Shown here: positions 16,577-41,062 of the stretch, piece after piece
Layout: each line of letters opens with the position of its first letter
Numbering within the stretch: position 1 is the stretch's first letter
Source of the DNA: an uncultured bacterium
GTDB taxonomy: Bacteria; Armatimonadota; HRBIN16
Length of the DNA stretch: 64,000 bases
Direction of reading: 5' to 3'
Assembly: GCA_964579145.1 (NCBI GenBank)
Contig: CAZOGB010000013.1
Span: 154-64,153 of the forward strand
Made by a program: the position numbers and the translations under genes
The notes under the pieces: model-generated
What the model was told of the DNA's origin: nothing
What the model saw: the letters and a program-made list of their open reading frames with translations, nothing else
Database searches by the model: none

Positions 16577-16753
16577 CTATCGCGGCGCGCCCTCTAGAGG
16601 CGGTATTTTGGGTGCAGGGTAGTGGCTTCGCAGACTTTTTTCATCGGTACGCGGAGCAGGTGCCATCCCTGACCGCATGAAAACTATGATAAACCCGACG
16701 ACAACTACTGCGATGGCCACTGCTACCCAGACAGGACTAATCTGCCTTCTCAT
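16577..16753 (-). CDS. Small single-TM Pro-rich protein (58 aa, not in ORF track), paralog of 33732-33935
   Basis: Translated by hand: MRRQISPVWVAVAIAVVVVGFIIVFMRSGMAPAPRTDEKSLRSHYPAPKIPPLEGAPR*. RBS AGGAGG overlaps the DUF1559 stop. Confidence 0.8.
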   Translation of the reverse strand: MRRQISPVWVAVAIAVVVVGFIIVFMRSGMAPAPRTDEKSLRSHYPAPKIPPLEGAPR

Positions 16754-16762
16754 GTGCCTCCT

Positions 16763-17473
16763 CTACAACCCCGGACAGGAGTTATCCGATGACCAGGGAT
16801 AGTAAATGTACAGGTATCTACCCGTGCAGGGATTAGTGGAACGGTCATTCCACCAGCCCTCCAGCACGTTGCGGGATACGTACTTGGCATGAGTATCAAT
16901 GAAAGTGACGTTCATGCCATCCGTATGACGGAAAGCCCAATGGCTTGGACCCCATGTTGCATTGTAGCCAAGCCCCTGATCATTATCGTCCGCGTCGTAG
17001 ACCTCGAAGAACCAGATACGCTCCGCAGGACGCTTGATCAGATCGAGCATGAACTCACTGACCGTGTTGTCCGATTTGATGTAGATTACGGCACCATACA
17101 CGTTAATGCCGTAACTCTTGTAGTACCACTCGGGAACCCAATCATATGGGTCGGTATTCCAAGGTTTCCTGGGCACTGCATGGCTTGGGCAGCGAAAGAT
17201 GTCTTCATTCTTCACATACGGCAGAATAAACCCAGACCATGTATTTGGAAAATGGGTAAACTGCCAGTATGTGTCCCAGATAGACATGCCATCATAGTCT
17301 TCTACATACATTCGCGCTCCCGTGCCAATCTGCTTCATGTTCGAGAGGCACGAGGTCTGCCTTGCTTTTTCCCTGGCTTGAGCGAAGACAGGGAACAGTA
17401 TCGCCGCCAGTATCGCGATAATCGCGATAACCACCAGCAGCTCAATCAGAGTGAACCCACGCTTGCTTTGCAT
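16763..17473 (-). CDS. Prepilin-type N-terminal cleavage/methylation protein, DUF1559 / H-X9-DG family
   Basis: G|[42 protein letters not shown]; C-terminal H-X9-DT variant ([14 protein letters not shown]). Confidence 0.92.
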
Positions 17474-17502
17474 TTCAGAACCCTCCTTCGGTTTTCAGGT
17501 TG

Positions 17503-18603
17503 TTATGTCGTTTTGGCTGGTGCACACGATTCGCGCAGAACCACCTGCGCTGGTACTTCCACCCGATGGGGCACAGGCTTGCCCTCCATCATGTCCATCA
17601 GCAAGCGCACACCCGTCTGCGCCATCTGTTCGAGGTCTACCCGCACCGACGAGAGAGGCGGCTGCATGGTGGTGCAGAAAGGCTCGTCGTCAAAGCCGAT
17701 GAGCGACAGGTCTTCTGGCACCTTCACGTTCATCTCTGTAATCGCGGGATAGGCGAACGCCAAAAGGATGTCCGACGCTCCCACGATCGCCGTCAGGGGT
17801 GGACGTACTTCCAGCAGACGCCTCAGTGCCTCTTGCACCGTCGGGCGGGGGCGGCCATGTTGCATCACCCAGTTCGCTTCGGGAGTGATGCCGGCTTCCT
17901 GCAAGGCGTCCATATAGCCCTCGAAACGCTGGGCGTAATGAGGCATATAGTGTCCGGTAAAGAAGCCGATGCGCCGATGTCCCAGGCGAATCAGCTCACG
18001 CACCGCCTGTCTGGTGCCGTCGCGATTTGCCTGCACCACGCGGGGAACAGGCACTTCTGGCTCCGCATCCACAATCACCACCGGATAGCCCCGTCTTTGC
18101 ATCCACAGCAAGCCCTCTTCATGCAAGGGACCGAACACCAGCGCGGCATCAAAGCGGTGATGACGCTCCCACTCCTGCAGGTAACTGGCGGATGCGCTCC
18201 GGTCGGGGAAGTGAAGCAGAAGGCTCCCCCACAGGTGCCGGGCGCACTCTTCCGCCGCCGCGTGCAACATGCGCATCTCGCCCACCGAGTACGAGGGGCG
18301 TGCGCCGGGTATCTGCCAGGTATACATGAGCGCAACCAGATGCTGTTGGACGGGCTGTTTGGGGCGACTGACCGCAATCACCGTGCCGCGGCGCGTCCGC
18401 TCCACCACCCCCCGTTGTGCCAGCAGGGTCAGGGCACGCTCGGCGGTCTGGTAGCTGATGCCGTAGTGGCGGGCAATCGTGCGGGCGGACCACAGCGGTG
18501 TGCCTGGCGTCAGCTGCCCGGCGTTTACCGCGGCTTCCACCTGCTCCACGATTTGCACGTAGAGCGGCGTGCGCAGGTGAGGGTTCAGGTGTAGCGGTAT
18601 CAT
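17503..18603 (-). CDS. GntR-family regulator with LacI-type sugar-binding effector domain
   Basis: PLYVQIVEQV..PGTPLWSARTIARHYGISYQT winged HTH; GHRRIGF, PEDLSLIGFDD, PPLSSVR. Start ATG 18603 is downstream of the promoter. Confidence 0.88.
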   Translation of the reverse strand: MIPLHLNPHLRTPLYVQIVEQVEAAVNAGQLTPGTPLWSARTIARHYGISYQTAERALTLLAQRGVVERTRRGTVIAVSRPKQPVQQHLVALMYTWQIPGARPSYSVGEMRMLHAAAEECARHLWGSLLLHFPDRSASASYLQEWERHHRFDAALVFGPLHEEGLLWMQRRGYPVVIVDAEPEVPVPRVVQANRDGTRQAVRELIRLGHRRIGFFTGHYMPHYAQRFEGYMDALQEAGITPEANWVMQHGRPRPTVQEALRRLLEVRPPLTAIVGASDILLAFAYPAITEMNVKVPEDLSLIGFDDEPFCTTMQPPLSSVRVDLEQMAQTGVRLLMDMMEGKPVPHRVEVPAQVVLRESCAPAKTT

Positions 18604-18628
18604 CGTTTCGGTCCTTGCTATGACTGCT

Positions 18629-18641
18629 ATGGTAATACCAT
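18629..18641. promoter_or_regulatory. GntR-type palindromic operator ATGGTA-A-TACCAT
   Basis: Perfect inverted repeat just downstream of the -10 of the gntR promoter; fits the GT-N-AC GntR box pattern. Confidence 0.65.
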
Positions 18642-18648
18642 TGCTTAC

Positions 18649-18677
18649 ACTATACAGTATCACGCTGTGTTTGTCAA
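18649..18677 (-). promoter_or_regulatory. sigma70 promoter TTGACA-N17-TATAGT for gntR
   Basis: Minus-strand TTGACA 18677-18672 and TATAGT 18654-18649. Confidence 0.75.
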
Positions 18678-18999
18678 GGGCTTTTGGCTCGCTGATGTAC
18701 GGGTTTTTTCGCTGGCTCGTCAATGCGTTTTGGATGACGATTTTAGAATGCAGAAAGACGATTTAGGCAATGACGAGCGTGGCCTGCCTGGCGGCTGTCG
18801 TCGGCTCAGGACGGCAATTGTGTTGATTTAACCGGTGTGTGCTATGATTTTTGAGGAGATTGAACGCGACGTGCTATGATAACGGTTCGCTCACGGTATC
18901 TGGCAGGACGACAGAGATGAGCCTCTCGTCCCTGATCGGTACAGAAACACCTCTCCGGAAAAGCTATGAAAAATTGTTGATGTTCCCAGCAAAAAGGTA

Positions 19000-28498: not shown

Positions 28499-29851
28499 TA
28501 TCCGCGCCGCCTCGTGCAGTACCTCTATCATGGTGGGATGGGCAGGGAACAACGCCCCCAGCGTTTCTACCGTTGCACCCAGCGCCATCGCTGTTGCCAG
28601 CGGCGCCAGCACGTCCGCTGCGTGTGCCCCAACTGCCGCGCCTCCCAGAAGCCTGCCGGTAGACTCTTCCACCACCAGCTTGACGAACCCTTCGCTCTCG
28701 CCCAGCAATTGCGCCTTGAGGGTGTCGGCGTAGCGGGCGCGGAACACCTGAACCGCCATTCCCTGCTGGCGTGCCTGCACTTCGGTCATACCTACCTGCG
28801 CCACCTGCGGCTGGGTGTACACCGCTTCCACCACCAGGTCGGGGCGGAAGGGAGCAGTTGCCAGGCCAAGCGCGTGACGCACCGCCACTCGCGCCTGCGC
28901 CCAGCCACGGTTGAGGGTGAACGGCGGTCCGGCGGAGTCACCTGCGACGTAGATGTGCCCAACGGACGACTGCATGAACTCGTTTACCACGACGCCCTGG
29001 GAATCGGTCTGTATCCCTGCCGATTCGAGGTTCAGCCGCGCCAGGTCTGCCCGCCTGCCGATGGCGATAAAGGCATGTGAGCCTTCTATCACCGTGCCGT
29101 CCACCAGCCTGACCTGTACGCCCCCATCGGTAGCGGTCACGCTCTCCACCGGTGAGGAGAGCTGAATCTCTATACCCATCTGGCGGAAGGCGTGTTCGAG
29201 TTCTTTCGAAACCTCCTCATCGGCGCGAGGCAGAAGACGAGGCATATCGGTGATGACGGTCACTTCCGAACCCAGTGTGCGGAACAGGTAGGCGAACTCG
29301 CTCCCGGTGACGCCACCTCCGACCATCACCATCCGCTCGGGCAGGCTCTGCAGACTGCTGGCGAAGCGGGGTGCAAGGATGCGTTTGCCGTCCGGTTTCA
29401 TGCTGGGTGGAAAGATGGGCACTGAACCGGTGGCAATCAACGCAAGGTCGAAGGTTATCTCCTGCTCGTCTGCGCCCTCGCTCCGCACCTTCAGCGTGTG
29501 CGGGTCCGCAAAGGAAGCCACACCCGTTATCACCCTTACCCCCGCCTGTTGTAAAGCCTTATGTTGTTGCTCACCCCACTGGCGGGTGCGCTGGCGGATG
29601 CGCTCCATCAGGTGAGCGAGATTGGCAGGGGAAGCCTGAATGTCCACCCCGCGATGCTGTGCATAGCAGGTATCACGTAAAGTGTCCGCCGCGGTGAGCA
29701 GTACCTTGCTTGGAACGAGGCTGTCCCATGTGGTACGCCCGCCGATTTCGCCTTCGCTAATCAGGGTTACCTCAGCTCCCTCGTTAGCCGCTTCCAGCGC
29801 AGCGTACACACCCACCGCGCCGCCTCCGATGATGACAAACCGTTTGGGCAT
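28496..29851 (-). CDS. Lpd/LpdA-like FAD-dependent pyridine nucleotide-disulfide oxidoreductase family protein lacking the redox cysteines
   Basis: GGGAVG FAD fold; GGRTTWDSLVPSK in place of GGTCxxxGCIPSK; GGGVTG NAD(P) fold; C-terminal HPTMIE. Confidence 0.85.
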   Translation of the reverse strand: MPKRFVIIGGGAVGVYAALEAANEGAEVTLISEGEIGGRTTWDSLVPSKVLLTAADTLRDTCYAQHRGVDIQASPANLAHLMERIRQRTRQWGEQQHKALQQAGVRVITGVASFADPHTLKVRSEGADEQEITFDLALIATGSVPIFPPSMKPDGKRILAPRFASSLQSLPERMVMVGGGVTGSEFAYLFRTLGSEVTVITDMPRLLPRADEEVSKELEHAFRQMGIEIQLSSPVESVTATDGGVQVRLVDGTVIEGSHAFIAIGRRADLARLNLESAGIQTDSQGVVVNEFMQSSVGHIYVAGDSAGPPFTLNRGWAQARVAVRHALGLATAPFRPDLVVEAVYTQPQVAQVGMTEVQARQQGMAVQVFRARYADTLKAQLLGESEGFVKLVVEESTGRLLGGAAVGAHAADVLAPLATAMALGATVETLGALFPAHPTMIEVLHEAARI

Positions 29852-29954
29852 CTGCGTCACCTCCAGCGTTCTCACAGGGTTGGACTCCGCAACAGGAACA
29901 GGAGATTCTCCGATGTAGAGGCGTAAGTTTTCGCCCTACCCCTCTCACGCAAGA

Positions 29955-29981
29955 CAGCTCGGCAGAAGCCTCGCCCTCCAG
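29955..29981. repeat. Dispersed copy of the CGGCTCGGCAGGAGCCTCGC(C/G)CTCCAG repeat
   Basis: CAGCTCGGCAGAAGCCTCGCCCTCCAG matches 25201-25227 with 3 mismatches. Confidence 0.7.
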
Positions 29982-29993
29982 GTTTTTTGCTGT

Positions 29994-30950
29994 CTACAGC
30001 GGCTCGCCGCCCTTGTCCACGTTCTCCTTCGTGAAGATGCGCGTACCGAGAGTGATGTTCTTCGGCACCTGCTCGCCCTTCAGTATCTTCAGCGCGGTTT
30101 CTATCGCCTCTTTGCCGCCGGTGGGATACTCGAAGGTGGCGGTGAGGATGCCTTCCTTCACATAACGCACGCCCTCGTGGGGCAGGGCGTCGATGCCGAT
30201 GAACTTGATGGTCTTCTCGCGCCCCTTGCCTTCCTGTCGCGCGGCGAGGTACGCCCCGTGTGCGCTGGGGTCATTGTGCGCGTAAACGGCATCAATCTGA
30301 GGGAACCGAGCCAGGGCGGACTGCATCTCGCGCTGGGCAATGGGTTCCAGCCACTGGCAGTCGGCGTCAAAGATAATCTCAATCTGCGATCCGGCGATGC
30401 CTTCCATGAAGCCTTTGTGACGCTCCTGTCCGGGTGTGGAAGTCATCAGTCCCTTCAGCTCCACCACCTTACCCTTGCCGCCGAGCAGTTTCACCAGGTA
30501 CTTGCCCGCCTCACGCCCGATCTTCACGTTGTCCGCGCCGATGAAGCAGGTATACTGGTCGCCCTCTACCTTGCGGTCGAGCACGATAACGGGGATGCCC
30601 TTCTGGTATGCCTCGGCGACGGGCTGGGTGAGCGGGCGTGCCTCCTTTGGGCTGATGATGAGCAGGTCTACGCCCATCTGGATGAACTCGCGCACCTGCG
30701 CCTGCTGCACCTCCGTCTTGTTCTGCGCATCCTTGAAGATGACCTCGATCTCGTCAGCGTGCTGGCTCGCCGCCTGCCTGATGTCTTCGTTCATCTGCAC
30801 GCGCCAAGGCTCGCCCAGGTTGCACTGCGACATGCCGATAACCCACTTCTTTTTGCCCTGTGGTGCGGATGTCTGCTCGGTCTGCTTCTTCCCACATCCG
30901 GCACACACCACCAGCAGGGCGAATGCCACAGCGATAGCGATTTGTTTCAT
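29994..30950 (-). CDS. Sugar ABC transporter substrate-binding lipoprotein (RbsB-like)
   Basis: Start MKQIAIAVAF at ATG 30950 (RBS GGAGG), lipobox CAGC; IGMSQCNLGEPWR, IGADNVKIG, YAHND, IGIDAL. Confidence 0.88.
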   Translation of the reverse strand: MKQIAIAVAFALLVVCAGCGKKQTEQTSAPQGKKKWVIGMSQCNLGEPWRVQMNEDIRQAASQHADEIEVIFKDAQNKTEVQQAQVREFIQMGVDLLIISPKEARPLTQPVAEAYQKGIPVIVLDRKVEGDQYTCFIGADNVKIGREAGKYLVKLLGGKGKVVELKGLMTSTPGQERHKGFMEGIAGSQIEIIFDADCQWLEPIAQREMQSALARFPQIDAVYAHNDPSAHGAYLAARQEGKGREKTIKFIGIDALPHEGVRYVKEGILTATFEYPTGGKEAIETALKILKGEQVPKNITLGTRIFTKENVDKGGEPL

Positions 30951-31960
30951 CACGACCTCCCTCTCTTTTGCTGGATAAGCACCGCGATAGCGATGATGAT
31001 ACCCTGAATGACCATGCGCGGCGCCAGCTCCACCGCGTTCAAACTGAGGATTTTGTTGATGTATGCCATAATCAGCACGCCGATGAGGGTGAACATCATG
31101 CCCCCGCGTCCCCCCATCAGGCTGGTGCCGCCGATAACGACGGCAGCGATAGCGTCCAGTTCGTAGGTCATACCCGCTTCGGTGTCGCCCAGGTCCTGTC
31201 GACAGGCGTTCAGCACTCCCGCCAGCGCGGCGAACATCCCGCACAGCGCGTAGGTCAATACCTTCACCGCCCCCACACGAATGCCGCTGAGCCGCGCCGC
31301 CTCTTCGTTGCCGCCGATGGCATATAGCCACCTGCCATAGGAGGTATATCGCACCAGCGCCGCCATCACCAGAATGCACAGCAGAAAGAGAAGCGTGGAT
31401 GGCTGGATGCCGATGCCCGGCAGGGCGGTGGTCATCCACTGGAAGAAGGGCGGAGTGCCCGACTGCATCACGTACCACGGTTGTCCGCCGGGCTGAACCT
31501 TGATCCCTCCCGCTACCAGCTTCGCCGCGCCGCGTGCAGCGGTCATCATTGCCAGCGTTGCCACAAACGGTTGCATCCGAAAACGCGCGATCAGGCTTCC
31601 GTTAATGACCCCACACGTCAGCCCTGTTAACAGCACCACGCCCAGCGCGGGCGCGATGCTCCAGCCGTAGCCGATGGTCAGCAGGGAAAAAAGCACCGCG
31701 CTCAGCCCCAGCACCGACCCCACCGACAGGTCAATGCCACCCGTCAGGATGACTAAGGTCATGCCAGTCGCCAGCAGTCCGTACTCCGAGTATTCGTACA
31801 GGATGGCAAGCTGCGTCTGCCAGGACAGAAAAATGGGAAGCCCAGTATCCAGGGCACGCGGACTGAAGATGATGCCCAGCGTGAAAACCACTACGAAGGC
31901 AATCACGCCACGATAGTCGTTCAGCTTCTCCAGAAAACCGTGTAACCTGCTTGTCTCCAT
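30950..31960 (-). CDS. Sugar ABC transporter permease (RbsC-like)
   Basis: ILTGGIDLSVGS, PFVATLAM, YAIGGNEEAARLSGI, YELDAIAAVVIGGTSLMGGRG. Confidence 0.9.
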   Translation of the reverse strand: METSRLHGFLEKLNDYRGVIAFVVVFTLGIIFSPRALDTGLPIFLSWQTQLAILYEYSEYGLLATGMTLVILTGGIDLSVGSVLGLSAVLFSLLTIGYGWSIAPALGVVLLTGLTCGVINGSLIARFRMQPFVATLAMMTAARGAAKLVAGGIKVQPGGQPWYVMQSGTPPFFQWMTTALPGIGIQPSTLLFLLCILVMAALVRYTSYGRWLYAIGGNEEAARLSGIRVGAVKVLTYALCGMFAALAGVLNACRQDLGDTEAGMTYELDAIAAVVIGGTSLMGGRGGMMFTLIGVLIMAYINKILSLNAVELAPRMVIQGIIIAIAVLIQQKRGRS

Positions 31961-32083
31961 GCGTTGAGGGTTCCTCTGATCCTCACTGTGCACCCTGCGA
32001 TTTCCTGTTCGCAAGCGGGCGAAGATTCTCCTTCACAGGTGGAAGGGTAGGGAAAAGGACACGGATAGCCAATTATCTTATCA

Positions 32084-32237
32084 GGAGCTACGCAGTGGAG
32101 TAGGTTAGCCATAAAGGGCTGCTGAAGGTTGCTGCGAAGCGTCGGGAGTGGGTGTCGGAGTGAAGCTTGAGACCCTTCGCTGGCGCTCAGGGTGATCAAA
32201 GCGGCAGGGTGATAGCGTTTCGCGACTGTGTAGCTCC
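32084..32237. mobile_element. Putative 154-bp MITE-like element with 13-bp terminal inverted repeats
   Basis: GGAGCTACGCAGT ... ACTGTGTAGCTCC (1 mismatch); non-coding interior contains REP-like GAGACCCTTCGCTGGCGCTCAGGGTGA (32169-32195); no target-site duplication seen. Confidence 0.4.
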
Positions 32238-32274
32238 GGTTCTTTGTGACACTTTCGTCTTTGGGGAGGAAAAC

Positions 32275-33687
32275 ATGCGATTCGGCAAACCGCTTCTAAC
32301 CTTTGTGCTGGCCGTGCTGGTATCCACGAGCGTTTTCGCTCAGATAAAGGTAAGCGGCACCTGGCGACTGCGAATCGAGGACTGGCAGTGGTTCAACGTG
32401 CCCGGCTTTGATACCGATTACACCTATGCGCATTCCCTCCTGCGTCTTGCGCTGACGGGCGAAACGGGTACAGCTCGGTGGAGAGCTGAACTGGCGCAGG
32501 CGGGGCTGTTCGACGTGCCCGATGCGGTGGCCCCACCGCCTGCAGGTCAGCTGGGGCTGGGTGGAACGCTCAAAGCGGTGAACGGCAACAACAAAGCCAG
32601 CCTGTTCGTGAAGCAGCTGAATGCAGAGTGGTCGCTGAACTGGGGCAGTCTGGAGGTTGGGCGTATGGAGTTCGGTGATGGGTGCGAGGTAGCGGTCAAA
32701 GACGCTGGATTGAACTGGCTACATGCCAATCGTATCAGCAACCGTCTGATTGGTCCTTTCGGCTTCTCTCCTGTCACCCGCTCGTTTGATGGGGTGCTGT
32801 TGCAGACGGGCGACAACTCCGGGCGATGGCTTTTCTTCGCCGCCTATCCCACGCAGGGCGCGTTTGACCTGAACGGCAACCCCACGTTGACCAATGTGAA
32901 CCAGCTGTATCTTGCCTACGCCCGTGCCCAGGAGACGAAGAATACGAGCTTTGACTGGCGTCTGTTCTGGGGCTGGTATCGCGACAGCCGCAACGTGCTC
33001 AAGGTAGACAACCGCCTGCTGGCGGCGCGGCAGGCAGACAGCGAGGACATCCGCGTGTGGACGCTGGGCGGACACTGGGCGCAAGTGTGGAACAGTGCCG
33101 CGGGACGAACCGACCTGCTGTTGTGGGGCGCTCTGCAGGGCGGTGAGTGGGGACAGATCAGCCACTCGGCATACGCGCTGGCGGCGGAAGCGGGCTTCCA
33201 GTTCCCGACGCTGTGGAAACCGTGGGTGCGTGCCGGCTATTACGTTGGCTCCGGCGACAAGGATAACACCGACGACCGCCACGAGACCTTCATCGCTGGC
33301 ATGAACACGCCTCGCCTGTATGCGATGACACCCTTCTACAACACCATGAACCTGGAGGACGCCTTCGTGCAGGTGATGTTCACACCGCATCCGCGCTGGT
33401 CGGCGAGGGTGGACTATCACCGCCTGCGCCTGAACCGCTCTTCCGACCTGTGGTATGCGGGAGGCGGTCCTTTCGACAACACCAGCTACGGTGTGGTGGG
33501 GCGTCCTTCGGGAGGCAATCGCGACCTGGCGCATCTGTTTGACATCTCGCTGAACTACCGCGCCAGCGATAGCCTGCAGATTTCGGTCTACAAGAGCTGG
33601 ATTCAGGGCGGCAGCGTCCTGCGCTCGGTGTATCCGGCTGGCGAGGACGGAGGGTTCTTCTTCGTCGAGGCGAACTATCGCTTCTAA
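32275..33687 (+). CDS. Outer-membrane beta-barrel, alginate export (AlgE)-like family
   Basis: Signal peptide MRFGKPLLTFVLAVLVSTSVFA; alternating beta-strand pattern; RSFDG; SGDKDNTDDRHETF; C-terminal NYRF. RBS GGAGG before ATG 32275. Confidence 0.72.
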   Translation: MRFGKPLLTFVLAVLVSTSVFAQIKVSGTWRLRIEDWQWFNVPGFDTDYTYAHSLLRLALTGETGTARWRAELAQAGLFDVPDAVAPPPAGQLGLGGTLKAVNGNNKASLFVKQLNAEWSLNWGSLEVGRMEFGDGCEVAVKDAGLNWLHANRISNRLIGPFGFSPVTRSFDGVLLQTGDNSGRWLFFAAYPTQGAFDLNGNPTLTNVNQLYLAYARAQETKNTSFDWRLFWGWYRDSRNVLKVDNRLLAARQADSEDIRVWTLGGHWAQVWNSAAGRTDLLLWGALQGGEWGQISHSAYALAAEAGFQFPTLWKPWVRAGYYVGSGDKDNTDDRHETFIAGMNTPRLYAMTPFYNTMNLEDAFVQVMFTPHPRWSARVDYHRLRLNRSSDLWYAGGGPFDNTSYGVVGRPSGGNRDLAHLFDISLNYRASDSLQISVYKSWIQGGSVLRSVYPAGEDGGFFFVEANYRF

Positions 33688-33697
33688 GGCACAAAGC

Positions 33698-33725
33698 GCA
33701 GGGGCAATCTGCCGATTGCCCCTGC
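33698..33725. terminator. 12-bp perfect hairpin between convergent genes (REP-like)
   Basis: GCAGGGGCAATC-TGCC-GATTGCCCCTGC. Confidence 0.65.
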
Positions 33726-33731
33726 CAGTTT

Positions 33732-33935
33732 CTATCGAGGGGTTTTCGCCGCCGGAGGGTAGTCAGGCGTCGGCTTGTAGGAACCACCCTGTTCCATCCA
33801 GGGCGGTACGCCCGGTGTGTATTTGACTCCCCTCGGTGGGCGTGGAGCGCTGAGGTAGTAATATGCTCCAAGAATCAGCCCAATCACCACCACGAGGAGC
33901 ACCACTGCAAGCGCGGGACTGACTTCCCGTTTCAT
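33732..33935 (-). CDS. Small single-TM Pro-rich protein (67 aa), paralog of 16577-16753
   Basis: MKREVSP + TM + Pro-rich tail; RBS GAGG; 15 nt after the DUF1559 stop. Confidence 0.82.
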   Translation of the reverse strand: MKREVSPALAVVLLVVVIGLILGAYYYLSAPRPPRGVKYTPGVPPWMEQGGSYKPTPDYPPAAKTPR

Positions 33936-33950
33936 GGAACCTCACCCCAA

Positions 33951-34703
33951 TTACTGCCTCTTGTCCCACATGCCGTTGGGCCAGGGGCCGTTGGGCGGGT
34001 CGCGTCGGGCAGGGTCGCGGGTCTGGTTGCCGATAGGTTGCGTGGTCTGGTCGCGGCGCATCCACTTCACATGCCCGTCGCACATGGCGTAGTTACTGCC
34101 CTGCGAGTGCATCGTTGCGCCGCCACCCTGCATGTTGAACTCGTTGTAATCCCAGAAGACCTCCGTTGCCCAGCCGACACTCCACTGGTGATACCAGTTG
34201 GGGCGCTCTGCCATGAAGATGGTGGTCGCTGGGCTAACGATGGTGGATTCGGCGGAAGCGGCAGGCGACATCAGGAAGCTGTAGGAGTTGGGACCCCAGC
34301 CCCAGTCGCTCTCGGGCCAGCGAAAGTTCTGGCTGTAGGTGACCGGAATGGCAGGTTTGGTGTTGTCCACGGCATCCTGTCCGCGCCCCCAGGCGTCGCT
34401 TGGGCATCGCCACATCTGCTGGTTTTTGACGTAGGGGTGTATCTGCTGGTGCCAGGGCACCCATGTGGGATTCCACCCCCATGTCCAGCTGTGCACTTCG
34501 TCATAGTCCTGAATGTACATCAGCTCGCCCAGCATGATTTGTTTCATGTTGGACAAGCAGGTAGTGGAGCGTGCCTTTTCCCGTGCCTGTGCGAACACCG
34601 GGAACAGAATCGCCGCCAGAATGGCGATAATGGCGATGACTACGAGCAGCTCAATGAGGGTGAACGCTCGCGCATCGTCTCGCCGTTGAGCAGTGAGTTG
34701 CAT
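33951..34703 (-). CDS. Prepilin-type DUF1559 / H-X9-DG protein
   Basis: A|[32 protein letters not shown]; [25 protein letters not shown]. Confidence 0.92.
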
Positions 34704-34727
34704 TGTTGAACCCTCCTTCTGTGCGTT

Positions 34728-35771
34728 TTATGGTGTACCGGATGCAGATGCTGCACCCAGCGTTGTCCCTTGTTGAATCTGCACTGGGATAGTCACGTCG
34801 GCGTATGTTTCCTGTTCACCTGTGATGTAGCGGTGCAGGAGATTCACCGCCGCTTCGGCTAGTGCGTCAAGGTCTACGTGCACTGACGCGGCGATGTGGC
34901 AGGTGGTGGCGGGCCAGTGTAACCCGTCGTAGCCAACCACCGAAAGCTGCGCAGGCACTTGTATACCCAGCTGGTCGCAGTCTTCCAGAACACGATACGC
35001 CAGCCAGTCACGCCAGCAGAACACCGCCGTTGGAGGCTCCCGCTGGCTCATCAGGTGGGCAAGCACCCCATGCGGCTCACTCCAGTAGCTGGCGATACGG
35101 TGCTCGGGAAGGTCGGCGCCAAGCTCGCGCAGGTAGTTCTGCAGAAGGCGAACGCGCGGAACGGCATCGCGAAAGTCGCTACCCTCCTCGATGATGGCAG
35201 CTACACGCCGATGCCCCAGCGATACCAGCGTCTGAGCAACCTGCTGCATCCCGCTTTCCATATCATCTCTGACCGACGGCAGGATGCCCGCTTCGTCGCG
35301 CGCGTTAATCAGCACGACCGGCAGGCGTGAACGCCTGAGCAGGGGCAAAAGGGGGTCATCGGGAAGAGGGGCAAACAGCAACACGCCATCCGCCCGACCG
35401 CCGTTGAGGAAGCGATAGGTCTCTTCGGGTGGGCGGCTGAAGTCGCAATGCACCAGCACATCATAGCCCAGCTTGCCCGCCGCGCGCTCGATGGCGGTGG
35501 ACAGCCTGTCCATATACAGGTCGTTGACGGTGCGCAGGCGGAAGGCGTTGAAGAAGGAAAGCACCTGCGTGCGCCCTCGCTGCAGAGAGCGTACCAGCAG
35601 GTTGGGGCTGTAGTCCAGCTCCTGCGCCGCCTCTTTCACGCGTTGGCGCGTCTGCTCGGAAATGCGGTGGCTGGTTGCCTTGCCGCTGAGCACCAGCGAG
35701 GCGGTGGTACGGGATACACCTGCCCGCCTGGCAACCTCATCTAGGGTTGTTCGCAACCTGCGCTTTGACAT
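34728..35771 (-). CDS. LacI-family transcriptional regulator
   Basis: TTLDEVARRAGVSRTTASLVL HTH; LGHRRVA; VPAQLSVVGYD. Start ATG 35771. Confidence 0.92.
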   Translation of the reverse strand: MSKRRLRTTLDEVARRAGVSRTTASLVLSGKATSHRISEQTRQRVKEAAQELDYSPNLLVRSLQRGRTQVLSFFNAFRLRTVNDLYMDRLSTAIERAAGKLGYDVLVHCDFSRPPEETYRFLNGGRADGVLLFAPLPDDPLLPLLRRSRLPVVLINARDEAGILPSVRDDMESGMQQVAQTLVSLGHRRVAAIIEEGSDFRDAVPRVRLLQNYLRELGADLPEHRIASYWSEPHGVLAHLMSQREPPTAVFCWRDWLAYRVLEDCDQLGIQVPAQLSVVGYDGLHWPATTCHIAASVHVDLDALAEAAVNLLHRYITGEQETYADVTIPVQIQQGTTLGAASASGTP

Positions 35772-35782
35772 GGGTTCTTTTC

Positions 35783-35800
35783 TGCTAAAGTACTTTAGCA
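35783..35800. promoter_or_regulatory. LacI-type operator O1: TGCTAAAGTACTTTAGCA (perfect 18-bp palindrome)
   Basis: Lies between the -10 and the start of lacI. Confidence 0.75.
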
Positions 35801-35802
35801 AT

Positions 35803-35831
35803 ATTATAGCCCACTCTTTCTCTGCTGTCAA
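35803..35831 (-). promoter_or_regulatory. Consensus sigma70 promoter TTGACA-N17-TATAAT for the lacI-DUF1559-small TM operon
   Basis: Minus-strand TTGACA 35831-35826 and TATAAT 35808-35803. Confidence 0.8.
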
Positions 35832-35838
35832 GAGGTTT

Positions 35839-35854
35839 GCTAAAATATTTTAGC
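35839..35854. promoter_or_regulatory. LacI-type operator O2: GCTAAAATATTTTAGC (perfect 16-bp palindrome)
   Basis: Same GCTAAA/TTTAGC arms as O1; overlaps an extended -10 (TG-C-TAAAAT, 35838-35846) facing the GH30 gene. Confidence 0.72.
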
Positions 35855-35990
35855 GAAATTTCAAAGAGGTTGATGCGGCCGGGGGGAAAGTTTCCCCCCT
35901 TCGCCCGCGATCCGAGGATAGGGGAACAGGGGTTTCAAGCCGTAACCGATTCATTTCCATTCCATTCTGAACAACACGAGGAGAGGATAG

Positions 35991-37451
35991 ATGTCTGCTG
36001 TAACTGTAGAGGTAGACACGGGACGGCGCTACCAGGTGATAGAAAACTTTGGGGCGTCGGGCGCATGGAGCATAGACCCCATCGGTAAGGAGTGGTCGGA
36101 GGCGAACAAGAACGCGCTTGCTGACCTGCTCTTCTCGCGCGAAAAGGGCATTGGATTATCGCTGTGGCGGTTCAACATCGGCGCGGGAGGAGCGCTCACC
36201 GACCAGCTATGGGACCCCTGGCGGGGTGCAGAGGTGTTCAAAGCCAGCGAGAACGCCGATTACGACTGGAGCAAACATGCGGGACAGCAATGGTTCCTGC
36301 GCGCCGCCAGAAAACGCGGGGTAGAGCGGTTCCTCGCCTGCGTGTACAGCCCACCCATCTGGATGACCAAGAACGGACATGCCCACTGCGACAAACAGTC
36401 CGGCTCCACGAATCTCAAGCCTGGCTATGAACAGCCTTTTGCCCGTTTCCTCACCGATGTGCTGGAGCATTTCGCCAGAGAGGGACTGCCTTTTCACTAC
36501 ATCAGCCCGGTCAACGAGCCGAACTGGGAGTGGGAAGGCGGTCAGGAAGGCTGCCGATATGACAACGACGACCTGAAGCGAGTGATTCACGCCCTCTATG
36601 CCGAGGTTCGGTCTCGCAGGCTGTCCACCCAAATCGTGGTGCCGGAGGCAGGCGAGCTGGTCTCCCTGCTGGACGACGAGTTCTATCGTCGCTGGGCGGG
36701 CATTGATGACCCGAAAGCTGCCCACACCCACGGCAACCGCTCCAGAGGCTGGGGGATGTATGGGCAGTATATCCGGGAACTGCTGGGCGATGCCGAACTG
36801 CGGCGCAGGATAGGCAACCGTATCTGCGCACATGCCTACTGGACTGATTCCAGCCTGCATCTTCTGCGCGACCTGCGTCGCACGGTGCAGGAAAACATCG
36901 CGCGTTACGCGCCGGGCGCACAGTACTGGCAAACGGAGTACTGCGTGATGGAGCACCGACGTGACCTGGGCATGGATACCGCTCTCCGTGTGGCTCGGGT
37001 GATCCACTACGACCTGACCGCGGGCAACGCCTCAGCATGGCACTGGTGGCTGGCGGTTTCGCCCTATGACTACAAAGACGGGCTGATATACACCGACTAC
37101 CGGCGCACCGGTCAGCAAAACATCCTGCCCTCCAAAACGCTGTGGGTGCTGGGGAACTTCAGCCGCTATCTGCGTCCGGGCGCCATCCGCGTACACGCCG
37201 AACCCTCCGAGGTAGAGGAAGACCTGCTGGTTTCCGCTTATATCCAGTCCACCAGTCCGCGCTTTGTGTGCGTGGTGGTCAATCGTGAGTCGCAGGAGGT
37301 TACCCTCAAACTGAAAGTGGACCGCAAGGTAGATACGCTCCTTCCGGTAGTGACCTCCGCCGAACACGACCTGGCCCCGCAGCCGGCGGTCAGAGCCTCC
37401 ACAGGGACAGTGATCCCCCCGCGCAGTGTGGTGACGTTAATTCACCGGTGA
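35991..37451 (+). CDS. Glycoside hydrolase family 30 (Glyco_hydr_30_2 type), no signal peptide
   Basis: NFGASGAW, GLSLWRFNIGAG, SPPIWMTKNG, catalytic NEP and TEY, ASAWHWW, FSRYLRPG. Confidence 0.88.
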   Translation: MSAVTVEVDTGRRYQVIENFGASGAWSIDPIGKEWSEANKNALADLLFSREKGIGLSLWRFNIGAGGALTDQLWDPWRGAEVFKASENADYDWSKHAGQQWFLRAARKRGVERFLACVYSPPIWMTKNGHAHCDKQSGSTNLKPGYEQPFARFLTDVLEHFAREGLPFHYISPVNEPNWEWEGGQEGCRYDNDDLKRVIHALYAEVRSRRLSTQIVVPEAGELVSLLDDEFYRRWAGIDDPKAAHTHGNRSRGWGMYGQYIRELLGDAELRRRIGNRICAHAYWTDSSLHLLRDLRRTVQENIARYAPGAQYWQTEYCVMEHRRDLGMDTALRVARVIHYDLTAGNASAWHWWLAVSPYDYKDGLIYTDYRRTGQQNILPSKTLWVLGNFSRYLRPGAIRVHAEPSEVEEDLLVSAYIQSTSPRFVCVVVNRESQEVTLKLKVDRKVDTLLPVVTSAEHDLAPQPAVRASTGTVIPPRSVVTLIHR

Positions 37452-37521
37452 AAAACGCAGGAAATATGCGCCAGCGCAGGTAAAATTAGGCTGTATCCGG
37501 CAAGGGAGGCTGGTAACAAGG

Positions 37522-38763
37522 ATGTCCAGGCGTAAGTCCAAAATCATCGGTACAGCGCAACCTGCGGAGGGGACCATTCGCCTGCTGGAGCCGGCGCGTG
37601 GGGTTGCAGACCCTGATGACCCGCATGTTCAACAGGTGGCGTCGCAGTTGCTGACGCTCTCGCAGGAGGAGCAGATAGCGGCGGCACAGTGGATGGGTTC
37701 ACAGCCCGATTACGTTGCGCTGGTGGCTTGTCTGCTCCATAGGATAGGGGTCAGTGGCGCGGTGCGTCGCGTGCTGAAGCGGGCGATGTTCGAACTGGAT
37801 CGACAGGGCGTACAGGTCGCACAGGTGTACTCAGTAGTGAGTTCAGACCGTGAAGACACTCGCAGGTCCGAGCAGTGGGTGACCGAAGAGGTGTTTGCGA
37901 GTGTGTTCTACGGATTCAGCAGCGACGTGCATCTGCGATTCTTCATGCGCCACCCCGTAGAGGGACGGGCGGCATTCCTCCTCGAGGTCACCGGCGGCGG
38001 CTACCTTGGGCTGGCACAGTTTGTGGATAGACAAGTCGATGAATTGCACCACGAGTGCCTGACCTACACGTATAATGCGCTGCTGCCGGGGCGCGAATCG
38101 GAGATCGAAGGCAACATAGGCATGTTTTTTACGCCAGTACCTGTAGACTGGGCAGTACAGGTGGTCAACCGGGCACGTCAACGGAACCTGCAGGAGCACC
38201 AGGAATTACATCCCCATGCCGCCTTCTACTGGGGTCGCCTGCCTGCGCCGCCAGATCCTCCAGTGCCCATGCCTGTCGATTCCATCCCGGACGCAGAGAC
38301 GGACTGGGCACTGTCCCCTTTGATGGGCAACCAGCCGGAGCGCGAAGCACCCCAGCCGCTCCTGCTGATGCTGACGGGATACATACCTCCATCAGAAGTG
38401 CTTGCTGAAGAGATGACGCGCCAGATGAAGCAGATGCAGAGCAGACTCATCCTGACCGAGCAGGCAGAGCGAGACCGGCTTGCTCAGGTGATGGACAGAG
38501 TCGCCCAGCAACTTCTGCCTGAAAAGTTTCGAGGATGGCTGCAAGAAATACTTCCCGTCTACGGGAGCGTTGCTTTGCTGGCTGGCGACCGTCAAACCGC
38601 GGTATGGTGCAAGGCACTCTGGCGCGAGCTGACCGAAAGGCGTGATAAACCCTTCTGGGATACTCGTACAGCATCGCTGTTGATCGCTATGTCATTGTCG
38701 GTATTGCTGTCCGAGATAGAAACGGCTGAGGGAGGTTTCGCTAATGACACGCCACTTGCATAG
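37522..38763 (+). CDS. Hypothetical protein (413 aa)
   Basis: RBS GGAGG; long ORF overlapping the next gene; no recognised motif. Confidence 0.75.
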   Translation: MSRRKSKIIGTAQPAEGTIRLLEPARGVADPDDPHVQQVASQLLTLSQEEQIAAAQWMGSQPDYVALVACLLHRIGVSGAVRRVLKRAMFELDRQGVQVAQVYSVVSSDREDTRRSEQWVTEEVFASVFYGFSSDVHLRFFMRHPVEGRAAFLLEVTGGGYLGLAQFVDRQVDELHHECLTYTYNALLPGRESEIEGNIGMFFTPVPVDWAVQVVNRARQRNLQEHQELHPHAAFYWGRLPAPPDPPVPMPVDSIPDAETDWALSPLMGNQPEREAPQPLLLMLTGYIPPSEVLAEEMTRQMKQMQSRLILTEQAERDRLAQVMDRVAQQLLPEKFRGWLQEILPVYGSVALLAGDRQTAVWCKALWRELTERRDKPFWDTRTASLLIAMSLSVLLSEIETAEGGFANDTPLA

Positions 38764-39736
38764 TAGAGGTTTCGCGTGGAGTCTGTCTCGCTGTTTGGCG
38801 ACCCTTTTACTGGTCGCTGTTGCTACCGGGTGTGCCCGTACCCAGAACGCACAGCCCTCGCGCAGCATTCCCTACGAGCAGGTTTATGCTTACGACCGCG
38901 ACCTGCCCCTCAACGCTGAAGTTACCGAGCAACAACGCGGCACGGGCTATGTCATCTACCGCGTGCAATACAGCAGCGTGCACGATAAGCGTGTGCCCGC
39001 GTGGTGGTGCGTGCCGACGACCGGAACGCCTCCCTATCCCTGTGTCATCATCATGCACGGCTACGGCGGTGACAAGAACGGTCTGCAGATGCTGGCGCCT
39101 GCCTTTGCCATGCGCGGTATTGCCACGCTGGCGATTGATGCCGAATATCACGGCGACCGCAAACAGCCGGGCAACGATATCCTCAGCACATACATCTACC
39201 GCAACCGCGAAGCCCTCGTTCAGACGGTGATTGACCTGCGCCGCGCCGTGGACTTCCTGCAAAGCAGGCAGGAGATAGACGGCAAGCGCATCAGCTATAT
39301 CGGCTTGAGCATGGGAGGCATTCTGGGCGGGATACTGGCAGGCGTGGACGAGCGCATCCAGGCGCCCATCCTGATTGTAGCGGGCGGCGACTGGGGCTAC
39401 CTGTTCAGCACCAGCCAACACCCAACCGCCGTGCAGCTGCGTGAGAAGAACCCTGAACTGTTCAAGAGCACACAGAAGATGAACGAGGTGATGGGCGTGG
39501 TTGACCCGGTGAACTGGGTGGCACACATCTCGCCGCGCCCCCTGCTGATGATTAACGGCAAGGATGACCAGATTGTGCCCAAAGAGTGCACCGAGCGCCT
39601 CTTCGCCGCAGCAAAAGAGCCGAAGGAGATTGTGTGGCTGGAAGGCGGACATATGCCCCAGCCCGATGTCGTCCTGCGCAAGGTAGACGAGTGGCTGACG
39701 AAGCACCTGTTGAACGGACAGACGGCAGGGAAGTAG
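38744..39736 (+). CDS. Alpha/beta-hydrolase lipoprotein (acetyl xylan esterase / dienelactone hydrolase-like)
   Basis: Lipobox VATGC; HGYGG; GLSMG nucleophile elbow; GKDDQIVP; GGH. Confidence 0.82.
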   Translation: MTRHLHSRGFAWSLSRCLATLLLVAVATGCARTQNAQPSRSIPYEQVYAYDRDLPLNAEVTEQQRGTGYVIYRVQYSSVHDKRVPAWWCVPTTGTPPYPCVIIMHGYGGDKNGLQMLAPAFAMRGIATLAIDAEYHGDRKQPGNDILSTYIYRNREALVQTVIDLRRAVDFLQSRQEIDGKRISYIGLSMGGILGGILAGVDERIQAPILIVAGGDWGYLFSTSQHPTAVQLREKNPELFKSTQKMNEVMGVVDPVNWVAHISPRPLLMINGKDDQIVPKECTERLFAAAKEPKEIVWLEGGHMPQPDVVLRKVDEWLTKHLLNGQTAGK

Positions 39737-39763
39737 GCGGGCTGGATGTGGGAGCCAGAGCAT

Positions 39764-39791
39764 AGCCCCACCTGACCTCCCCGCAGGCAGG
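39764..39791 (+). repeat. Dispersed copy of the AGCCCCACCT..CCTCCCCGCAGGC repeat
   Basis: AGCCCCACCTGACCTCCCCGCAGGCAGG between convergent genes; same family as 25128/25420/25487. Confidence 0.75.
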
Positions 39792-39804
39792 ATGGTTTGT
39801 GGCG

Positions 39805-40836
39805 TTACCCCGCTCTGCTCACCTGCGCGAAGGCATCAATCGCCCGGCTGATGTCCTCGTCGTCCACGTCTTTGTGCGTAACCAGGCGAAGCGTGTGGGG
39901 AAATACGTCCAGACACAGCACGTCCAGCGTCTCTAACTGCTGAACCACCCGACGCGCCGGTTGTTCGGTTTGTACATACACCATGTTGGTCTGCACCGTC
40001 TCCATGTCCACCGAAAAACCGGGCATCTCTGCAATCGCTTCCGCCAGGCGTCGCGCTCGGGCGTGGTCTTGCGCCAGCCGGTCAATCATGGTGTCCAGTG
40101 CTACCAGTCCCGCCGCGGCGAGAATCCCCGCCTGACGCATCGCGCCCCCCAGTATCTTGCGCACGCGACGTGCCTCCTCGATGAACGCTCGTGAACCGCA
40201 AAGCACCGACCCCACCGGACACGCCAGCCCCTTTGAGAGACAGAACATCACCGAATCGGCGCACGCCGCCAGTTCCTTCGCAGCCACGCCCAGCGCCACC
40301 GCGGCGTTGAAAATGCGCGCCCCGTCCAAATGCACCGACACGCCATACCGTCCAGCCAGATCCCACACCTCGCGCATATACTCTAAGGGTAGCACCACGC
40401 CTCCCGCCGCGTTGTGGGTGTTCTCCAGACAGATGAGACGGGTAGGGGGTGTATGGTCATCGCCCGGGTGGATGCGTTTGGCGTACTCTTCCACCGGCAC
40501 AATACCGCGCGTATTGGGCAGGGTGTGCAACTGCACGTTGCTGATAAACGCCGCTGCACCCAGCTCCCACTTCACAATATGGCAGTCCTCGTCGATTAAT
40601 ACCTCGTCGCCCGGGCGGGTGTGTACCTTGATAGCGATTTCGTTGCCCATCGTGCCCGAGGGAACAAACAGGGCAGCTTCCTTGCCCAGCAGTTCCGCGC
40701 TCCTCTCCTGCAGACGATTGATAGTCGGGTCCTCCCCGTAAACGTCGTCGCCCACCTCGGCGTTCGCCATCGCGCGGCGCATTTCGGGGGTGGGTACGGT
40801 CACCGTATCACTGCGCAAATCCACCAGACGCTTCAT
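39805..40836 (-). CDS. ltaE: Low-specificity L-threonine aldolase
   Basis: [47 protein letters not shown] (PLP Lys). Confidence 0.93.
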
Positions 40837-40928
40837 TGCTCTCCTCCAGAGGTCAGGTCTGCTCACCTAACAGGATACACTCTGTGCGTACCGAAATCAA
40901 CGCTTTGCGGGATGTCTTCCTATTGTGC

Positions 40929-40980
40929 CCTGCGATTGGAAATCGCAGGCAACACAGAACAAAACCTGCTGAAGCAGGTT
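40929..40980. repeat. Two adjacent intergenic hairpins (CCTGCGAT-TGGAA-ATCGCAGG; AACCTGCT-GA-AGCAGGTT)
   Basis: Perfect 8-bp stems at 40929-40949 and 40963-40980 in a divergent intergenic region. Confidence 0.5.
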
Positions 40981-41062
40981 CCAGTCTCGGAAGAAGGCTT
41001 TGTCATGGATGACCTGCAGCTTTGGGTTGCGGGATTGCCTCTTACCAATTAGGAGACGAAAG

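Follow-up and report, generated by a model that had tools for sequence, protein, structure and literature searches.

What is a pilin-like protein doing in an operon with a LacI-family repressor, back to back with a glycosidase gene, and how many of the surrounding genes belong to the same system? The question is raised by the middle of a 64,000-nt stretch (the window) on contig C13 of the 3.68-Mb, 134-contig genome (G000) of an uncultured bacterium of the Armatimonadota. Here an outer-membrane barrel, a DUF1559 pilin-like protein, a small transmembrane (TM) protein, a LacI regulator, a glycoside hydrolase of family 30 (GH30), an esterase-like lipoprotein and sugar ABC genes lie close together, and the first-pass annotation took them all for parts of one uptake locus. 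I consider it likely instead that this locus is a mosaic, in which the sole functional unit is a four-gene cassette of 3.7 kb (approximately 33712-37453), read from the sequence as microprotein < pilin < LacI <> GH30. The genes of the cassette share a common inheritance, common operators and a linkage that recurs across lineages.

Inheritance and synteny were compared in 13 genomes of the genus. Orthologues of LacI, the pilin and GH30 occur in the same nine genomes and are missing from the same four, and in eight of the nine carriers the cassette genes are adjacent, which bears out the earlier view of the DUF1559 module and GH30 as one unit. The LacI orthologues (80-96% identity) always adjoin the pilin, the microprotein is present in all nine cassettes (76-91% identity), and GH30, a single-copy gene in this genome, is 78-95% identical within the genus. 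The pilin, at 90-97%, is the best conserved of the cassette proteins. Relative to the barrel and to orf413, the reading frame that follows GH30 in the window, the cassette is found at three different positions across the genus; G008 carries cassette, barrel and orf413-esterase pair at three separate places on one 1.6-Mb contig. In cassette-free G006 the gene order is permease <> barrel > orf413 > esterase. When the 173-nt spacer between barrel and orf413 in that genome is aligned with the window, the edges of the indel fall inside the hairpin that follows the barrel and at the stop codon of GH30. As judged by this alignment, the indel is exactly the four-gene cassette.

Then there is the control region between LacI and GH30. 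Two perfect 16-bp palindromes, O1 and O2, lie 55 bp apart, centre to centre, on either side of the LacI promoter, whose -35 box is at 35831 and whose -10 box ends at 35803; the twin operator suspected at first reading is real. O1 and O2 are the sole exact sites in the 3.68-Mb genome, none other lies within one mismatch, and relaxing the genome scan to three mismatches added no credible site. When the intergenic regions of eight genomes of the genus are aligned, O1, O2 and the two promoter hexamers prove invariant, and the spacer drifts. The LacI protein has an N-terminal helix-turn-helix and an effector domain like a periplasmic binding protein (PBP), and a palindromic operator at its own promoter; by these putative operators it is predicted to be an autoregulated repressor. 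Related TGCTCAAnnnnTTGAGCA pairs stand just after the LacI promoters of distant orthologous loci, so that twin-operator autoregulation appears to be a trait of this LacI lineage. On the other arm, the GH30 start codon is only about 40 nt past O1 in G002, G005, G011 and G012. With this spacing the GH30 promoter of the four genomes must, by prediction, overlap the operator region, and both arms are most simply read as co-repressed. The cassette is probably self-repressed and inducible by a sugar. As for the same LacI controlling the barrel, the ABC genes or the esterase, the operator scan, at up to three mismatches, rules it out.

The leader of GH30 (35855-35990) contains in this genome an insertion of about 95 nt that separates O1 from GH30 and includes a 19-nt G/C hairpin, GGGGGGAAAGTTTCCCCCC (35881-35899). 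The insertion is absent in G002, G005, G011 and G012 and may be a small palindromic repeat element of a kind found elsewhere in the window. In several genomes of the genus, a perfect palindrome rich in A and T, AATTTTTCGAAAAATT, occupies part of the interval from O1 to the GH30 start; degenerate in G000, it could be the site of a second regulator or part of the GH30 promoter.

The linkage extends well beyond the genus. Other Armatimonadota metagenome-assembled genomes yielded, in a protein search, full-length relatives of the pilin at 48-63% identity. For eight such external pilins, the pilin of the cassette is the best match among the 68 paralogues in its genome, with 185-278 bits as against at most 120 for the next; scores more than two-fold above the next mark the eight as an orthogroup. 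All eight sit behind a LacI gene or adjoin a GH30. In five, a GH30 of the same family (PF14587) adjoins the pilin gene or lies in its operon: LacI > pilin > 65 aa > GH30 (L058); LacI > pilin > 79 aa > SBP_bac_1 > two permeases > NPCBM-GH30, with a CUT1 ABC importer thus placed between (L060); GH30 <> LacI > pilin > 74 aa > GH51-like (L061); pilin > uncalled microprotein > GH30 (L064); and LacI > pilin > uncalled microprotein > GH30 (L065). The remaining three (L059, L062, L063) read LacI > pilin > microprotein, with a pectate-lyase-like gene near the second and a GH95 near the third. Since PF14587 is present in only 25 of 61 related genomes, adjacency in five loci of eight is far beyond chance. 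This recurrence and the invariant operators uphold the regulatory link between DUF1559 pilin and GH30 that had been suspected. The orthologous microprotein, with the motif GQV(K/Q)YTPG(V/K)PPW, is present in all eight loci, in two of them as an uncalled reading frame. Other DUF1559 modules in the same loci adjoin other families (GH99-like, GH44). A colinear LacI > pilin > GH30 in G054 was rejected as an orthologous case, its pilin falling outside the orthogroup, and counts as an analogous pairing only.

What sort of protein is the pilin? Its class III signal peptide, cleaved between A and FTLIELLVV, has the glutamate at position 5 (PF07963, 35.3 bits, cut-off 21.2; TIGR02532, 28.9, cut-off 16.3). 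PF07596 (SBP_bac_10) scores 40.7 bits (cut-off 23.3), though the match is confined to positions 2-66 of the 268 in the profile; the C-terminal H-X9-DG motif is found at residues 198-216 (TIGR04294, 30.5 bits, cut-off 19). The protein therefore has both defining traits of the DUF1559/H-X9-DG family, the prepilin motif with Glu5 and the pairing of PF07596 with H-X9-DG. An AlphaFold (AF2) model built on a 62-sequence alignment (mean pLDDT 92.8) has a helix of 50 residues at the N-terminus and then a small sheet with long loops. In a Foldseek search of the PDB, the sole similarity was to the N-terminal helix of type IV pilins (E>0.4), and the head was left unmatched. The head contains 17 tryptophans, 8.9% as against a genome mean of 1.5% (6-fold), several of them kept across the orthogroup. 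A head so rich in tryptophan is compatible with sugar binding, though no proof of it.

The microprotein is predicted to be oriented N-in, with one TM segment and a proline-rich periplasmic tail containing VKYTPGVPPW; no Pfam or NCBIfam family matched it. Its type is common in the genome, where a small bitopic TM protein of 52-105 aa comes after 29 of 69 pilin-like genes, and the role of inner-membrane carrier first assigned to it is not borne out. That role is further undercut by the orthologous operon that does encode a carrier, an ordinary CUT1 ABC system.

The pilin is one of 68 DUF1559 pilin-like proteins in 3.68 Mb, which hardly differ over their first 31 or so mature residues, Glu5 included. 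A pilin gene comes immediately after about 23 of the genome's 28 PBP-type regulators. An earlier copy of such a module within the window, also noted at first reading, does exist (16577-18723; GntR-PBP > pilin > 58-aa TM). The genome has a single prepilin peptidase (Peptidase_A24, PilD) and also encodes five secretins and 12 T2SSE-family ATPases, four of them long (PilB/GspE-like) and about seven PilT-sized. Against these stands a single TonB-dependent receptor (one PF00593 match, on another contig). The envelope inventory is unusual for a genome of 3.7 Mb; three of the PilT-sized ATPase genes are in tandem on contig C1 and three of the secretin genes in tandem on C35. The family at large is massively expanded in Planctomycetota and relatives, with 40-100 genes per planctomycete genome. 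A literature search on DUF1559/H-X9-DG found no function given for it. The cassette pilin resembles that family in its N_methyl class III signal, PF07596, H-X9-DG and expansion, here to 68 copies, and differs from the family as described in that its orthogroup is tied to a LacI, a cognate microprotein and a GH30.

The enzyme keeps the catalytic glutamate pair of GH30, its NEP and TEY motifs aligning with those of its closest solved structure, 3clw (Bacteroides fragilis BF1510), over the full length (E 7e-65). 3clw is assigned to GH30_4 (PMC13431644), a subfamily whose listed activity is beta-fucosidase (PMC11058611); by this best PDB match the enzyme is a candidate member of GH30_4. The two differ in that BF1510, annotated as exported, has a signal peptide and the enzyme of the cassette has none. 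Its ATG is directly preceded by an in-frame TAG, which confirms the absence of a signal peptide, and the earlier argument that a cytoplasmic GH30 requires import of its substrate can be accepted.

I propose, tentatively and at somewhat less than even chances, that the pilin head binds the substrate of GH30 and acts through the type IV filament machinery. With no inducer present, LacI dimers on O1 and O2 would close both divergent promoters, until a sugar related to the substrate or product of GH30 released the repressor. The prepilin-like protein would then be cleaved by the single PilD peptidase and join shared type IV filament machinery. At the envelope, its tryptophan-rich head and the cognate microprotein would capture the glycan or pass it on. 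An importer encoded elsewhere (in one orthologous operon, a CUT1 ABC system) would take the oligosaccharide into the cell, where the signal-less GH30 would cleave it.

Several points weigh against this reading of the cassette. Glycan binding by the pilin, its incorporation into a filament and its contact with the microprotein are all predictions, and no transporter for the GH30 substrate was identified in this genome. In three of the eight orthologous loci there is no GH30 within 7 kb. At least two clades are represented among the partner GH30s (54%, about 39% and 24-31% identical to the enzyme here), and some have a signal peptide while others are cytoplasmic, so that what is constant across loci is the family of the enzyme and not its location. 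A consensus scan detected no sigma-70-like promoter for GH30, hand inspection yielded weak candidates only, and co-repression of GH30 by LacI is predicted from the geometry of the control region. Finally, in G001, the closest relative, GH30, orf413 and the esterase lie on another contig without operators, and LacI, pilin, microprotein and barrel retain them (loci L048, L049). Either a recent rearrangement has uncoupled GH30 from its repressor or the assembly is at fault.

The proposal can be carried a step further, by analogy with the pseudopili of DNA uptake, which work through secretins: each DUF1559 pilin with its microprotein could be the head that gives a glycan-harvesting type IV filament its substrate specificity. 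I regard this broader idea as rather unlikely, but much would follow from it. If it were true, diderms poor in TonB receptors (Armatimonadota, possibly the PVC phyla) would have gained a third route of polysaccharide import, beside the Sus-like TonB systems and the ABC systems of Gram-positive bacteria, and the pairing of pilin orthogroup with GH30 would reflect a glycan code in the pilin heads. Apart from this, DUF1559/H-X9-DG is among the largest uncharacterised families of bacterial paralogues, and the locus offers a compact case in which it can be put to the test: one pilin orthogroup inherited, regulated and conserved with one glycosidase family and a dedicated microprotein. The defined operator makes the inducer accessible to assay, and the 190-residue head domain does the same for the ligand.

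An unlikely alternative, but the one that survives best, is that the pilin does not polymerise at all. It would be held in the inner membrane by its helix, bind or sense glycan in the periplasm with the microprotein as partner, and hand its substrate to an importer. The archaeal bindosome is the nearest functional precedent: in Sulfolobus, sugar-binding proteins carry class III signal peptides and are assembled by the Bas system (PMC3047682). A tethered receptor would accord with the class III signal and the predicted sugar-regulated expression of the pilin, and in L060 pilin and microprotein directly precede the CUT1 ABC importer. Planctomycete proteins that combine N_methyl with SBP_bac_10 fractionate with membranes, which is the extent of what was reported of them (PMC8567305). 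The likeness to the bindosome consists of pilin-type signals on sugar-uptake proteins and, as a proposed analogy, assembly in the manner of type IV filaments. The differences are these. The archaeal proteins are genuine solute-binding proteins of ABC systems, whereas the DUF1559 head has no such Pfam domain and is unlike any binding protein of solved structure; the ABC system in L060 has a separate, canonical SBP_bac_1 of its own; and the host here is a bacterium with an outer membrane. Furthermore, some 31 nearly identical N-terminal residues in 68 paralogues look like the demand of a common filament core, or of one assembly platform.

It is less probable still, indeed quite improbable, that the cassette serves secretion or display, with the DUF1559 protein as a substrate-specific pseudopilin or adaptor of a machine like the type II secretion system (T2SS) that exports or anchors the glycosidase. 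The microprotein would then be an assembly factor, and the GH30 of this genome would secondarily have lost its signal peptide. The partner GH30 does have a signal peptide or hydrophobic N-terminus in L060, L061 and L064, possibly also in L065 and L045, the pilin N-terminus is weakly GspG/GspH-like, and secretins and GspE/PilB-like ATPases are at hand (five and four, respectively). Yet GH30 lacks a signal peptide both here, where the stop codon excludes a longer reading, and in L058, whose enzyme is 54% identical, and still no gene of the cassette is more strongly conserved than the pilin. With type IV pilins and T2SS pseudopilins it shares the cleavage motif, Glu5 and a long helix followed by a small beta-sheet, and the genome encodes the PilD, PilB/GspE-like, PilT-like and secretin components of type IV filament systems. 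But it scores far under the equivalog cut-offs for GspG, GspH and PilA (36.4 bits with the GspG model TIGR01710, cut-off 88.85), and its head is unmatched in the PDB. Its neighbours are LacI, microprotein and GH30, in a sugar-repressor operon with a glycosidase; no gsp operon, pilus cluster or other T2SS genes adjoin the cassette.

This leaves the reading with which the locus came to be noticed, a single route in which an AlgE-like porin, the pilin and a TM carrier feed the cytoplasmic GH30 and to which the esterase and ABC genes also belong. All these genes are physically adjacent, and barrel and microprotein share the hairpin between them, a predicted bidirectional terminator. The order barrel-cassette-orf413 recurs in G005 and the junction of barrel and cassette in G001. 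A genome nearly without TonB-dependent receptors must, moreover, have some other route for glycans across the outer membrane. The locus indeed lacks SusC/SusD, and the window has no TonB-dependent receptor, as was first observed, but the observation is trivial, given that only about one such receptor is encoded in this entire genome and in every other member of the genus.

Synteny largely refutes the single route, and I find it barely credible: the barrel is present in 12 of the 13 genomes, including the four without the cassette, and lies next to the cassette in no more than three of nine (G000, G001, G005), no operator was found near barrel or ABC genes in the genome scan, a 67-aa protein with a single TM segment cannot serve as a carrier, the ABC genes are of the CUT2 type without an ATPase, and esterase and orf413 are in every genome. 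The expected conservation of a barrel-DUF1559-GH linkage thus holds for its GH30 half and fails for the barrel. The locus resembles a polysaccharide-utilisation locus of the Bacteroidota in the co-localisation of regulator, glycosidase and envelope proteins and in being, by prediction, inducible by substrate; it differs from one in having no SusC/SusD pair and in consisting of a four-gene unit whose other neighbours are not co-inherited.

If not a glycan porin, what is the barrel? It is an Alginate_exp (PF13372) protein, resembling AlgE barrels in its score over cut-off and in its signal peptide, and differing in that no alginate biosynthesis genes surround it. Its constant neighbour is the divergent ABC permease, a synteny kept in 12 of 13 genomes. 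Homologues of 39-47% identity from other families were compared for context: nirB-hemD-barrel-nrtA-nrtB-ATPase-MFS (L038), nrtA-permease-ATPase-barrel (L036), MFS-MFS-x-barrel-molybdopterin oxidoreductase (L039), nrtABCD-barrel-nasA-like (L067), a barrel adjoining norB (L066), a barrel after a beta-carbonic anhydrase (L040), and a barrel fused to a NarJ/TorD domain (PF02613) behind a three-subunit molybdoenzyme (L068). Several more fusions of barrel with PF02613 are found among the matches to metagenomic proteins. In four of 12 genomes of the genus (G008, G004, G002, G010), genes for a NitT/TauT-type binding protein and permease immediately precede that of the barrel. None of 12 barrels compared, eight from outside the genus and four from within, lies in an alginate or exopolysaccharide operon; their neighbours are nitrate, NitT/TauT, molybdoenzyme, norB and carbonic anhydrase genes. 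The contexts of the homologues, and the NitT/TauT genes upstream in four genomes of the genus, suggest that the barrel is probably a porin for small oxyanions of the nitrate or NitT/TauT type, which abuts the cassette here by chance. The branch of Alginate_exp found in nitrate-assimilation operons has the look of a subfamily of oxyanion porins; a full-text literature search found no description of such a branch of PF13372. It is a by-product of the analysis, apparently undescribed, and a caution that an outer-membrane barrel beside a glycosidase is not always a glycan porin.

The features of the locus are collected in Table 1. The operon of LacI, DUF1559 protein and small TM protein, the GH30 that faces it, the barrel converging on the module and the nearby esterase-like lipoprotein were all found as the first-pass annotation had them. 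An Rfam scan of 29000-41000 gave no match.

Table 1. Features of the cassette, its control region and its neighbours (positions in the window).
Feature	Position	Strand	Evidence and remarks
RbsB/YtfQ-type lipoprotein binding protein	29994-30950	-	PF13407, 171.5 bits; translationally coupled to permease
CUT2-type RbsC/AraH-type permease	30950-32014	-	PF02653, 157 bits
Alginate_exp outer-membrane barrel	32275-33687	+	PF13372, 63.2 bits (cut-off 25.2); signal peptide MRFGKPLLTFVLAVLVSTSVFAQ
G+C hairpin between convergent barrel and microprotein genes	33698-33725		12-bp stem
Bitopic microprotein, 67 aa, last gene of LacI operon	33732-33935	-	Open reading frame with ribosome-binding site
DUF1559/H-X9-DG prepilin-like protein	33951-34703	-	PF07963, PF07596, TIGR04294, TIGR02532
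LacI-family regulator, first gene of operon	34728-35771	-	PF00356, 59.2 bits; PF13377, 81.9 bits; also PF00532
Control region, 219 bp	35772-35990		
Operator O2	35784-35799		GCTAAAGTACTTTAGC; 16-bp perfect palindrome over predicted transcription start of LacI operon
Predicted sigma-70 promoter of LacI-pilin-microprotein operon	35803-35831	-	TTGACA-17-TATAAT; 12/12 consensus match
Operator O1	35839-35854		GCTAAAATATTTTAGC; 16-bp perfect palindrome upstream of -35, on GH30 side
GH30 glycosidase	35991-37451	+	PF14587, 304.9 bits
orf413, orphan reading frame of 413 aa	37522-38763	+	
Lipoprotein, AXE1/DLH-like alpha/beta-hydrolase (esterase)	38744-39736	+	Lipobox VATGC

The sugar ABC system said to lie nearby is there in part, as a permease and a binding protein, but it is incomplete and of the monosaccharide type. 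Both genes have the marks of CUT2, with RbsC/AraH/YjfF and RbsB/YtfQ as best NCBIfam models, all below the equivalog cut-offs. A CUT2 pair in the conserved backbone of the genus does not belong with the glycan system. No ATPase gene adjoins the pair in G000 or in G008; the ATPase must be shared or have its gene elsewhere.

Between GH30 and the esterase lies orf413, which the first-pass annotation did not mention. It had no match in Pfam, in NCBIfam or in the sequences or folds of the PDB. The protein is predicted to be cytoplasmic, has a fairly confident AF2 model (pLDDT 83.5) and is restricted to this genus-level group, with only 26 clusters among 5.8 billion proteins. Its gene overlaps that of the esterase by 20 nt, and the esterase always follows it directly, in all 13 genomes, with or without the cassette, which takes the esterase out of the system to which it had been assigned. 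The region upstream of orf413, with a TAAAAT box, is retained in cassette-free G006, from which orf413 probably has its own promoter. The two genes read as an independent backbone operon.

Upstream of the barrel, G008 (L028, 3715-9186) and likewise G004, G002 and G010 carry a 5.7-kb accessory block that is absent from G000. Its genes encode a 272-aa protein, a SCO4226-like protein, an acyl-CoA-dehydrogenase-N-like protein, a 604-aa NMT1_2 binding protein and a permease. The block may be a unit for uptake and oxidation of the organosulfonate or nitrate type.

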